Of a stretch of DNA of 64,000 nt, positions 54,914 to 56,041 are shown in pieces. Source of the DNA: Escherichia coli (lineage in GTDB: Bacteria > Pseudomonadota > Gammaproteobacteria > Enterobacterales > Enterobacteriaceae); NCBI RefSeq assembly GCF_003334335.1, contig NZ_QOWQ01000010.1. One strand, given 5' to 3'. The notes beneath the pieces were generated by a model. It was given only the letters and a program-made list of their open reading frames with translations. It searched no databases and was not told the origin of the DNA. Positions within the stretch are counted from its first letter, which is position 1, and each line of letters opens with the position of its first letter. A program made the translations under genes and the position numbers.

Positions 54914-56041
54914 TTAACGGCGTCTATAGCCTTCCTCTAGCACCGCCTGTGTTCGAACGAGTTCATCTGCGAGTCGTTTCTCATCAGGTAGTTGCATCTT
55001 ATATTCGCTTGCCAGAACGGTGTTAGGCAAACCTGCCAGAGCATAATGCGCTTCTCCGGCTCCTTTCTCTGCACAGAGAACCAGACCGATGGGCGGATTT
55101 TCATCCGGTAGCGTCCAGTGCTCTTTGGCGTAGTTGAGATACATATTCATCTGTCCGGCATCGCTATAGCTGAATTTGCCCACTTTTAGATCGACGATTA
55201 GCAGGCAGCGTAAACGGCGGTGGAAAAACAGCAGATCGACACGAAACCAGTTGTCATCAATGCGTAACCTTCGCTGCCGACCAACAAAGGCAAAATCATC
55301 CCCAAGTTCCAGCATGAAATCCATCAGGTGGTTGATCAGCGCCTCCTCAAAATCGGATTCTGAATATTCATCTTTCAATTCCAGAAATTCGAGCACAAAG
55401 GGATCGCGTATCGCCTGTTGCGGAAGAATATGCGTCTCGGCAGGAGCGTGTTGTTGCAGCATGGCTGATTTGTCATGTGACAGTAGTGTCCGCTCATAAA
55501 ACTGGGTCGCAATTTGCCGCTCTAGCTGGCGAACAGACCAGCCACAGCGGAGCGTCTCTTTTTCATAAAAGCTGCGGGCGTCAGCGTTTTTAACGGAAAG
55601 TAAACGGACGTAGGTGGACCTGGGCAAGGGGAAAGATTTGGCAGACAGCGTCTGCCAAATCTTTGCCGATGGGAATTCTGCAGACGGTGTCTGCGGAATT
55701 CCCAATGGTGTTAATTCGCCAGACATTGTCTGGCGAATTTCAACATGTTGAAAAAAGAGGTAAAAAAGCCTCATTTGGCGTAAGTTTTTTGCAGAGAACC
55801 CACGCTTATACCTTAGACATAAATCCTTTGATAGTCGCTTGATTAGCTGCGCACCATACGCAGCCCTGGCCTCGCCACCTTGTTCAAATTCGACAATTCG
55901 TCGGCCAATTTCCTGGTACGTCGCGGTCATTAACGCGTTAACGCTACGTACCGTTTCCGTCCGGGCGCTATCGACCAGATGAATAATACCGTCGTGGATT
56001 TGCTGGTAGCCTGCTGTGGTTCCTTCTGAGAGCGATTCCAT
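54914..56041 (-). CDS. yhcG: DUF1016 family protein with predicted C-terminal PD-(D/E)XK nuclease-like domain
   Basis: 375-aa ORF; N-terminal YhcG_N-like region, central low-complexity segment encoded by hairpin repeats, C-terminal region with acidic/Lys motifs (IVDLKVGKF) compatible with restriction-endonuclease-like fold. Confidence 0.85.
   Translation of the reverse strand: MESLSEGTTAGYQQIHDGIIHLVDSARTETVRSVNALMTATYQEIGRRIVEFEQGGEARAAYGAQLIKRLSKDLCLRYKRGFSAKNLRQMRLFYLFFQHVEIRQTMSGELTPLGIPQTPSAEFPSAKIWQTLSAKSFPLPRSTYVRLLSVKNADARSFYEKETLRCGWSVRQLERQIATQFYERTLLSHDKSAMLQQHAPAETHILPQQAIRDPFVLEFLELKDEYSESDFEEALINHLMDFMLELGDDFAFVGRQRRLRIDDNWFRVDLLFFHRRLRCLLIVDLKVGKFSYSDAGQMNMYLNYAKEHWTLPDENPPIGLVLCAEKGAGEAHYALAGLPNTVLASEYKMQLPDEKRLADELVRTQAVLEEGYRRR
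55632..55739. repeat. three tandem hairpin units (39-bp period) lying in-frame inside yhcG
   Basis: Directly seen: AAAGATTTGGCAGAC-AGC-GTCTGCCAAATCTTT (15-bp perfect stem), GGGAATTCTGCAGAC-GGT-GTCTGCGGAATTCCC (1 mismatch), AATTCGCCAGAC-ATT-GTCTGGCGAATT (perfect). Confidence 0.85.

Follow-up and report, generated by a model that had tools for sequence, protein, structure and literature searches.

Tandem copies of an ancient in-frame coding palindrome in Escherichia coli yhcG, a palindrome typical of DUF1016/YhcG genes

The Escherichia coli gene yhcG encodes a protein with a predicted nuclease domain, and its coding sequence contains three consecutive DNA hairpins that follow each other without breaking the reading frame. 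In this study, we are discussing these hairpins on the basis of a 64,000-nucleotide (nt) stretch of E. coli DNA (RefSeq assembly GCF_003334335.1, contig NZ_QOWQ01000010.1), which is referred to as "the window" and on which an earlier note, made from the letters alone, had pointed them out. There is little doubt that the three hairpins are tandem copies of an ancient coding palindrome which lies in frame and is typical of the genes of the DUF1016/YhcG family.

In plus-strand letters, hairpin A (55632-55664) reads AAAGATTTGGCAGAC-AGC-GTCTGCCAAATCTTT and possesses a perfect 15-base-pair (bp) stem, which reaches 18 bp with one mismatch at 55629-55667. Hairpin B, composed of GGGAATTCTGCAGAC-GGT-GTCTGCGGAATTCCC, has a 15-bp stem with a single T.G pair (C.A on the coding strand), and hairpin C, AATTCGCCAGACA-T-TGTCTGGCGAATT, a perfect 13-bp stem (for the extents of both see Table 1). 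The centres of the three hairpins, at 55648, 55687 and 55726, are spaced by exactly 39 bp, corresponding to 13 codons. On the coding strand, the units are numbered 1, 2 and 3 in protein order (hairpins C, B and A, respectively) and specify the peptides IRQTMSGEL, IPQTPSAEF and IWQTLSAKS within residues 102-136. Sequence inspection, repeat search and folding z-scores all bear out the three hairpins with a 39-bp period inside a 375-amino-acid (aa) yhcG that the earlier note had described. The stem lengths of 12-15 bp given there were slightly low, the measured values being 15-18, 15 and 13 bp, and the two further copies at 54873-54899 and 62012-62038 had not been listed.

These hairpins are real and go beyond chance. 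Folded as RNA, the 141-nt segment reaches -67.8 kcal/mol compared to a shuffle mean of -31.1 (z = -10.4; 0 of 200 shuffles), in agreement with the strong messenger RNA (mRNA) structure that had been proposed as a consequence; folded as DNA, it reaches -50.7 versus -17.3 in shuffles (z = -12.9). The whole window contains 11 perfect stems measuring 11 bp or more, seven of which are terminator-like, with A/T runs at both stem ends, while four are of the yhcG type, and the pattern AATTCNNCAGACNNNGTCTGNNGAATT, with up to three mismatches allowed, finds four matches versus zero expected. Tandem Repeats Finder, applied to 55000-56500, reported nothing, because the units have little in common beyond the palindrome core, and the MG1655 annotation contains no repeat feature at the hairpin site of yhcG.

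Three established types of element were considered and rejected. The internal hairpins are not followed by a T-run and their stem bases are A/T-rich, which speaks against an intrinsic terminator; a CRISPR array is incompatible with spacers of only 6-14 nt, with translation of the element and with the lack of an adjacent cas gene; and the search for an Rfam RNA family returned only chance mir-266 matches of 21-24 bits versus a gathering score of 80. Since the DNA of yhcG is palindromic, the plus strand of the region 55614-55842 contains two mirror open reading frames (ORFs; 55614..55751 and 55663..55842) encoding ILQTVSAEF and IRQTLSGEF. These are almost certainly not genes and could be a trap for ORF callers.

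The host gene is a member of the DUF1016/YhcG family, as both Pfam domains are present. The yhcG of the window is 100% identical to the annotated yhcG of several E. coli strains (including 300709 and ABW_A33) and 99.9% identical to that of K-12. PF17761 (DUF1016_N) corresponds to residues 19-184 of YhcG (E = 1.3e-36) and PF06250 (YhcG_C, the PD-(D/E)XK nuclease domain) to residues 208-360 (E = 1.6e-56). The palindromic unit is located inside DUF1016_N, where YhcG is about 30 residues longer than the 137-position Pfam model, and not, as previously assumed, between the N-terminal domain and the nuclease domain. In the AlphaFold2 model of YhcG, for which the mean predicted local distance difference test score (pLDDT) is 79.5, units 1 and 2 (residues 101-123) have a pLDDT below 50 and are predicted as coil, consistent with the extended linker that had been suspected, and unit 3 is predicted to form a helix at residues 126-136 running into the PLPRSTY segment. 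According to this model, the ancestral unit, which neighbours the W.H motif, is probably a helix of the domain, and the additional units probably constitute a disordered loop.

Concerning the possible activity of the protein, the nearest fold of the modelled nuclease domain, according to Foldseek, is that of NucS/EndoMS, followed by Can2 and Bax1. An earlier profile analysis had related the nuclease domain to DUF91/NucS and to archaeal Holliday-junction resolvases, and noted that it is Hjc/YraN-like (PMC1189080). PADLOC matches YhcG to the candidate defence gene PDC-S02 (E = 2.8e-131). Many of the matching PDC-S02 profiles span only residues ~6-110, or only those from ~120-140 onward, which suggests that database entries of family members frequently end, or are divided into pieces, in the region of the palindrome. 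DUF1016 genes are frequent within type I restriction-modification (R-M) operons (PMC9881135), and we found them to be commonly placed inside operons with overlapping stops and starts, type I R-M operons among them. Sequence searches of the PDB, NCBIfam and PHROGs with YhcG retrieved no solved homologue, no NCBIfam model and nothing useful otherwise; the non-coding RNA G0-10703, a neighbour of yhcG, runs divergently from its 5' end and has nothing to do with the hairpins.

At least one unit occurs in every enterobacterial orthologue as well as in distant homologues down to 27% identity. This comparison leads us to reject a foreign insertion, and it goes against the idea of an inserted repeat element with which the hairpins had first been described. 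In each of the 21 aligned enterobacterial proteins, one EI.QT.S.E unit or more is found at the corresponding position; the deletion variants P0030 and P0032 retain a part of it. Residues I102, Q104 and T105 do not vary, and S107 hardly does. Outside this group, DNA of 51 homologous loci was taken from one-genome-per-species contigs. Genes from Thermodesulfovibrionales, Gemmataceae and many Bacteroidota possess one to three near-perfect palindromes at 200-340 nt into the matched region, and a gene from Ignavibacteriae contains two weaker ones (10/13 pairs). The frame of the palindrome is always ATT nnn nnn nnn | nnn nnn nnn nAA T, while the stems differ by taxon. When each base was scored as a centre by the pairs at offsets 1-13 around it, with a cut-off of at least 10/13, 75 centres were located in the 330-nt linker windows of 44 genes, nearly all of them in frame 0, versus 125 in the remaining ~290 kb.

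The same arrangement is encountered in plasmid-borne homologues with 27-62% identity, from Nostoc, Francisella, Legionella, Methylomonas, a Klebsiella plasmid, two Burkholderia, Arthrobacter, Rhodococcus, Butyrivibrio, Clostridium and a Rickettsiales bacterium. In 12 out of 12 cases, the unit is found at nt 285-320, directly before the L(S/P)W.H motif; examples are FVQQPAAQL (TTTGTGCAGCAGCCTGCTGCACAAT), ISQQAAGKL (ATTTCCCAGCAGGCTGCTGGGAAAT), IGQQPVGQL (ATTGGCCAACAACCTGTTGGCCAAT) and KVSPLVTQL (AAAGTGTCACCACTGGTGACACAAT). The earlier note had reasoned that distant homologues with a similar linker and without palindromic DNA would speak against a special element; the opposite was found, that is, palindromic DNA is present and the stems are different. 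A further 80 loci were retrieved by nuclease-domain peptide motifs alone, a selection that is blind to the palindrome. Among the 59 non-redundant genes obtained this way, the best palindrome of the whole gene is the frame-0 unit in 48, and in 35 of the 39 genes that could be anchored automatically, the best palindrome lies within the 14% of the gene that extends from an upstream anchor to the W.H motif.

At least seven phyla have the unit at the same DUF1016_N position, namely Proteobacteria, Bacteroidota, Firmicutes, Actinobacteria, Cyanobacteria, Planctomycetes and Nitrospirota. The unit is composed of nine codons (25-27 nt) with the centre at the first base of codon 5, resulting in a geometry in which codon 1 pairs with codons 8-9, codon 2 with codons 7-8, and so forth. 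In one subfamily, the core CAGAC-N3-GTCTG is kept across phyla; other subfamilies have different cores. A second unit-like palindrome is located about 180 nt further into the gene in a subfamily characterized by KLS..REL (Methylomonas and a viral contig; L094 1039 and L168 nt 438 of the gene), where it encodes KLSTQLREF and KLSSVMREL; in some lineages, the element may occupy more than one site.

The two arms of the unit co-vary. In a set of 56 distinct sequences in which the protein anchor alone determined the centre, six codons ahead of the W, Watson-Crick pairs make up 64.6%, versus 21-35% at slid centres and 34.2 +/- 1.6% (maximum 40%) in 1000 partner shuffles. The gapless alignment A4, comprising 36 units that abut the anchor, has 85.1% of its cells paired, versus 51.5 +/- 1.9% upon shuffling (0 of 500) and 26-42% in slid controls, and a covariation score of 0.775 versus 0.178 in shuffles (0 of 500), with double-sided changes in 11 of 11 pairs; as A4 omits anchored sequences with an offset unit, the anchor-based figure is the unbiased one. 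By its covariation, the unit is a conserved base-paired nucleic-acid element in the generic sense. G.U pairs are scarce, accounting for 5 of 396 cells in A4 and for 4.9% in the anchor-based set compared to 8-13% in the slid controls. The mismatches in 145 units comprise 43 coding-strand G.T, equivalent to wobble in the mRNA, versus 72 A.C, equivalent to wobble on the other strand; this asymmetry is confounded by codon constraints and has been weighed only against RNA, not in favour of an antisense RNA.

While offsets 2 and 3 from the centre are paired in 87-90% of the units, no significant association was obtained for complementarity at offset 1 (Fisher p = 0.12), implicating a stem with a 3-nt loop. 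Across seven enterobacterial genera, the diversity at third codon positions is 0.00-0.07 over the unit versus 0.40 gene-wide, which is rank 2 among 321 windows. Symmetry is seen at every stem position, including freely varying ones, which argues for a constraint on intrastrand pairing and not on two duplex half-sites. Recognition of such half-sites by a dimeric regulator is unlikely, given that a reader of duplex DNA would not need symmetry at freely varying positions. Wobble pairs go unused, making DNA a simpler reading than RNA. As judged from these sequence patterns, it is pairing within a strand that is constrained and not the peptide, most simply in DNA, in the form of a hairpin or cruciform, and probably not in mRNA.

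Within E. coli and its close relatives, the number of units is variable; alleles with one, two or three units encode proteins of 349, 370, 375 or 382 aa. The O157:H7-type allele (349 aa) displays an exact 78-bp deletion equalling two units, and the one-unit junction is found in 382 of 5426 complete genomes. An allele class with 92% identity has two units with both stem arms changed (CGC...GCG to GTG...CAC), and other alleles contain three units of different sequence (382 aa). The 39-bp unit is divisible by three and its copy number is polymorphic; the segment is, thus, an in-frame variable-number tandem repeat, which supports the proposal that the repeat had been amplified without a frame break. 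Used as a BLAST query, the 38-nt unit has a median of three and a maximum of six places per E. coli genome, the best place being yhcG in every listed genome. These low numbers, together with the lack of an annotated MG1655 repeat, led to the rejection of a dispersed repeat of the repetitive extragenic palindrome (REP), enterobacterial repetitive intergenic consensus (ERIC) or BoxC type.

Several genome rearrangements end at the units. In E. coli B and many other strains, the homology of yhcG ends exactly at the foot of the third hairpin (hairpin A) and is followed by unrelated DNA up to nanQ, and strain 203740 carries an IS1 inside the same hairpin and is devoid of the 5' portion of yhcG. Gain and loss of units, the ends of deletions and replacements, and the IS1 insertion support the recombination hotspot, or fragile site, that had been suspected here. 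In the E. coli B-type locus (L001 4406-4878), unrelated DNA has taken the place of the downstream palindrome and of two thirds of yhcG, on its 3' side; this DNA contains a 101-aa "transposase" ORF, for which NCBIfam and PHROGs contain no matching family and a PDB search was unhelpful.

Table 1. The yhcG gene, its palindromic units and the further copies in the window (positions in nt of the window).
Feature	Position	Strand	Description
yhcG coding sequence	54914-56041	minus	375 aa; from the ORF list, annotation of identical genes, Pfam, PADLOC, AlphaFold2 and Foldseek
Unit 1 (protein order)	55713-55739	minus	I102-E109(L); perfect 13-bp arms; in all enterobacterial orthologues
Unit 2	55671-55703	minus	IPQTPSAEF; 15-bp arms with one C.A; absent from one-unit alleles, e.g., O157:H7
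Unit 3	55629-55667	minus	IWQTLSAKS; site at which the gene replacement of E. coli B and, in other strains, an IS1 insertion are joined
Extragenic copy, ATTCTGCAGACACTGTCTGCAGAAT	54873-54899	no strand	follows the yhcG stop after 15 nt; the convergent nanQ/yhcH stop comes next
Solitary copy, apparently a relic, ATTCGCCAGACACAGTCTGGCGAAT	62012-62038	no strand	follows the gltD stop after 15 nt and borders the gltF-yhcADEF island

The copy downstream of yhcG is a perfect palindrome with 12-bp arms, and the ~17 nt on its 5' side, in the direction of the coding strand, resemble the internal linker. It is also present in O157 and other alleles. In the read-through variant P0021, in which the yhcG stop is lost, this copy is translated as ILQTLSGE, preceded by FQRFR, which identifies it as a duplicated piece of the linker. 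It could perform double duty as a bidirectional 3' hairpin for yhcG and nanQ/yhcH. The copy next to gltD reads IRQTVSGESNY followed by a stop on the minus strand and is similar to the linker of a one-unit yhcG allele. Strains without the gltF-yhcADEF island, such as O157, have yhcG directly after gltD (~184 bp), with no palindrome there. Based on these comparisons, the gltD-side copy looks like the relic of an older yhcG linker, and this suggests that the island was gained at, or substituted for, an older copy of yhcG. Within the island, yhcE of the window (56939-57490) is an unbroken 183-aa ORF, whereas yhcE of MG1655 (NC_000913.3) is interrupted by IS5; the window therefore derives from a K-12-like strain other than MG1655 itself.

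Copies outside of genes are not confined to E. coli. In 389 kb of sequence flanking the homologous loci, 69 palindromes with at least 10/12 pairs were detected, of which 13 are of the DUF1016 type. Seven of the latter are positioned 27-80 nt past the stop, that is, in E. coli alleles, two Gemmataceae loci, Clostridium, Rickettsiales and locus L145. In the E. coli alleles L006/L015 and L016 and in Clostridium (L100), the arm of the outside copy differs by 0-1 nt from the gene's own internal unit. Locus L147 has a copy of its internal unit in the 5' leader, immediately 5' of the start-codon region, and L050 a solitary copy 160 nt upstream; in L032, a relic linker ORF with two units is situated between an integrase gene and an intact DUF1016 gene.

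In viral contigs, the pattern ATTNNNCAGACANTGTCTGNNNAAT has 30 matches versus one and three for permuted palindromic controls, with the N positions being complementary in nearly all 30 and not more than one mismatch in the few exceptions. Of these matches, 19 fall inside DUF1016 ORFs. The other 11 are placed outside recognised DUF1016 ORFs, in or at the ends of mobile-element genes; some are relics of DUF1016 genes or neighbours of one (L081, L084), and others have RhuM, AbiEii or a large serine recombinase as a neighbour, or stand alone in phages with a high G+C content. Comparison with the intact gene in L084 identifies the repeats in L081 as internally deleted DUF1016 genes, whose relic units still are near-perfect palindromes. 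These 180-bp direct repeats (4686-4864 and 6007-6186) flank a cassette of two genes (191 aa and 130 aa), which appears toxin-antitoxin-like, judged by its arrangement. The same cassette is found in L084 (8236-10600) between one relic and the intact DUF1016 gene. In L067 (9930-9990), a pair of neighbouring yhcG-type palindromes, each in a different frame, adjoins the start of a gene for a large serine recombinase; the pair may represent an attachment-site junction that arose within a DUF1016 linker. The G+C-rich phage contigs L074 (8089), L075 (1342) and L082 (3207) contain solitary palindromes that are rich in A+T (ATTTTCCAGACACTGTCTGGAAAAT and similar). These are located at the 3' ends of unrelated genes or shortly behind them, and the stretch examined has no DUF1016 gene; the copy in L082 falls within the last part of an ORF, where its translation is IFQTLSGKL. 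A BLAST search for the "empty sites" of these solitary phage palindromes against the phage collection gave no match.

Regarding the maintenance of the unit, the best overall explanation, in which our confidence is about evenly divided, is that of an ancient family-wide coding palindrome preserved by both templated correction and selection. In the K-12 lineage, the unit has been multiplied in register to 3 x 39 bp, with slippage or unequal exchange as the presumed cause, and this adds ~26 disordered residues. Hairpin-templated correction by template switching at quasipalindromes, which is documented in E. coli (PMC7202029), would help to keep the arms complementary. It would account for double-sided changes without intermediates, for the strict Watson-Crick pairing, for lasting relics and for the frozen synonymous sites, the latter because the third position of a codon pairs with the second position of the partner codon, so that compensation is non-synonymous. 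The peptide specified by the unit looks like a passenger, considering the low pLDDT of units 1 and 2.

As a second force, selection would act on a cis-acting DNA structure that travels with the gene. Such selection is suggested by the presence of the unit in all 21 enterobacterial sequences (two of them partial), even though it lies in a disordered loop and its deletion would presumably be harmless; by stem cores that are kept within subfamilies across phyla and differ between subfamilies; by extragenic copies that match the gene's own unit; and by the rarity of such palindromes in neighbouring genes. On this sequence evidence, we regard a selected DNA structure linked to the encoded protein as a tentative proposal, somewhat short of an even chance. 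The likeliest partner would be the NucS/Hjc-like product of the gene itself, as this is the sole factor that always co-occurs with the element, and the hairpin or cruciform would serve as its cognate binding, cleavage or control site. A cognate site would explain both the subfamily-specific stem cores and the extragenic copies that match their own units. By the modelled fold, the palindrome is, thus, a candidate, if speculative, cognate hairpin or cruciform site for a YhcG-type nuclease. Going further, these genes might be self-contained modules of a nuclease plus a cognate DNA hairpin, in which the product recognises the in-frame structure and both co-evolve; from the sequences at hand, we consider this extension unlikely. 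In such modules, the structure would be a control site, a trigger or a target, e.g., in single-gene abortive infection or gene mobility, and tandem amplification would tune the activity.

The main rival, which we rate as rather unlikely but with a slightly better chance than the module, is that of a functionless, self-correcting palindrome. It would have arisen once in the ancestor of the family and perpetuated itself, its arms being kept alike by template switching, while it is the presence of the segment, and not its exact sequence, that matters to the protein; copies, deletions, relics and junctions would be by-products of its fragility. In E. coli, template switching has been documented as a mechanism behind hotspots (PMC7202029), and several findings fit this rival, including the double-sided changes with almost no one-sided intermediates under strict Watson-Crick pairing, the near-perfect palindromes in relics of dead genes, the variable copy number with breakpoints at the element, and frozen synonymous sites that follow from the third-to-second position geometry alone. 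Also, there is a subfamily in which the peptide pattern is kept and the palindrome is lost. What counts against the absence of function is that very weak selection overrides a mutational bias of about 1e-8 per generation in large bacterial populations, so that near-perfect neutrality would be needed for an extremely long time. Deleting a unit of the disordered loop should do no harm, yet none of the 21 enterobacterial sequences is without it, two being shortened. In addition, the CAGAC-N3-GTCTG core looks sequence-specific as well as structural, and comparable palindromes are rare in the flanks.

Two other explanations assign the palindrome a different role. As an element of the mRNA, which we judge improbable, it could act as a translational pause in the N-terminal domain, as a barrier or processing site by which the proportion of upstream and downstream message in an operon is set, or as an autoregulatory operator; copies of the 5' leader would be ordinary leader hairpins, and those behind the stop codon 3' stabilisers. 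The very stable predicted RNA structure, the fixed position in the coding frame, the L147 copy immediately 5' of the start-codon region, the post-stop copies in seven loci and the frequent location of these genes in operons with overlapping stops and starts are in line with it. Opposed to this are the near absence of G.U pairs, the deficit of coding-strand wobble mismatches relative to the antisense kind, the lack of a U-run behind the internal hairpins and of an Rfam family match, and the persistence of solitary copies, in either orientation, in intergenic relics that do not look transcribed. Highly improbable, in our estimate, is a recombination or attachment site at which the recombinases of mobile elements, or cassette exchange, would swap parts or neighbours of the gene. 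Integrase genes adjoin DUF1016 genes or relics in L032, L081 and L095, the tandem palindromes of L067 abut a large serine recombinase gene, the two-gene cassette of L081 is enclosed by pairs of relic palindromes, the 3' replacement in E. coli B begins at the foot of hairpin A, and a relic marks the edge of the gltF-yhcADEF island. However, no recombinase is consistently co-occurring, most genes are without a second flanking copy, the L081 repeats are relics of internally deleted genes and not dedicated sites, and the single-base centre with a loop of 1-3 nt is unlike the 6-8 bp spacers of tyrosine recombinases or the central dinucleotide of serine integrases.

Several observations weigh against a selected DNA structure as the explanation for the palindrome. 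The subfamily lacking it (L127, L134, L139) retains the peptide pattern IVNACVHNL.W.H; consequently, the peptide segment is constrained in its own right and the palindrome can be lost, being dispensable in some lineages. Templated correction combined with purifying selection on the peptide could suffice to produce double-sided changes without intermediates, frozen sites and relics, so that the data do not require the layer of a selected structure. Further, the result at offset 1 leaves a perfect palindrome of the duplex type undemonstrated, and for a cruciform to be extruded in vivo, 11-13 bp is a short stem. The scarcity of G.U pairs speaks against RNA without excluding it, as codon constraints limit the mismatches that become visible. 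Finally, the extragenic copies are a minority, ~13 among ~110 loci, and may be mere debris of rearrangements. The subfamily without palindrome, to which L131 belongs besides the three loci named, has the peptide I(V/L)N(A/T).VHNL.W(T/S)HF; it is a natural loss and could be used as a comparison group.

If the hairpin is truly the nuclease's own site, it would be categorically new. The palindrome would be a rare case of a DNA secondary-structure element that is conserved with compensatory covariation inside a coding frame across phyla. Covariation is usually read as the signature of functional RNA, making the palindrome a useful counter-example for such screens. For a widespread, uncharacterised nuclease family, a defined 25-nt hairpin is the first concrete, testable handle, either as ligand or as substrate, with a reach that includes YhcG of E. 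coli, PDC-S02 of PADLOC, type I R-M operons, plasmids, integrative elements and phages. Moreover, the family offers a natural system to study whether templated correction can preserve a palindrome indefinitely. In practical terms, the unit is a marker for relics of DUF1016 genes and explains the length polymorphism and the breakpoints of yhcG in E. coli genomes.

In the literature searched on DUF1016, yhcG, COG4804 and coding palindromes, no description of the yhcG palindrome was found; at the DNA level, the palindrome of this gene family is apparently undescribed. None of the known phenomena compared here matches a short palindrome at one homologous codon position of one family across phyla, but each of them shares some of its traits. 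Rickettsia palindromic elements (RPE), which Ogata and colleagues are said to have described in 2000, reportedly are selfish palindromic repeats inserted in frame in protein genes. Like the yhcG unit, they constitute palindromic DNA in an ORF with the frame intact, an added peptide that is tolerated and a presence that varies between strains. RPE are 100-150 bp in length, recent, and spread over many unrelated genes and intergenic regions of one genus, whereas the yhcG unit has 25-39 bp, is tied to one gene family with about three places per E. coli genome, and keeps a fixed homologous position across phyla, implicating an ancestral and not an inserted element. In restriction enzymes EcoR124I/II, in-frame variable tandem TAEL repeats of HsdS set the spacer length in the type I specificity subunits. 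There, too, gain or loss of a short coding repeat in register alters the length of a connector in a restriction- or defence-related protein; the HsdS repeats are not known to be palindromic, and their effect on target recognition has been demonstrated.

REPs and bacterial interspersed mosaic elements (BIMEs) are similarly short (20-40 bp) hairpin-forming palindromes, and in the system of REP and REP-associated tyrosine transposase (RAYT), a nuclease-type gene is flanked by co-evolving cognate hairpins. REPs, however, are extragenic, occur in hundreds of copies and carry a GTAG/CGTC tag, with RAYT being an HUH enzyme, in contrast to the intragenic, untagged yhcG palindrome with its handful of copies and its PD-(D/E)XK nuclease. 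At the quasipalindrome hotspots of the E. coli thyA and lacZ reporters, templated errors make short arms complementary, which is a known mechanism for double-sided changes that lack intermediates; yet, these have been described as mutational hotspots in the laboratory and not as features conserved in a gene family over very long times (PMC7202029). Probably the nearest phenomenon described so far is that of coding palindromes in mitochondrial genes of Nematomorpha, which are perfect inverted repeats with both arms translated (PMC6649704). They are up to 284 bp long, numerous, distributed over several mitochondrial genes of a few animal species and lineage-specific (PMC6649704), whereas the unit of yhcG is short, belongs to one bacterial gene family and has arms that co-vary over very deep divergence.

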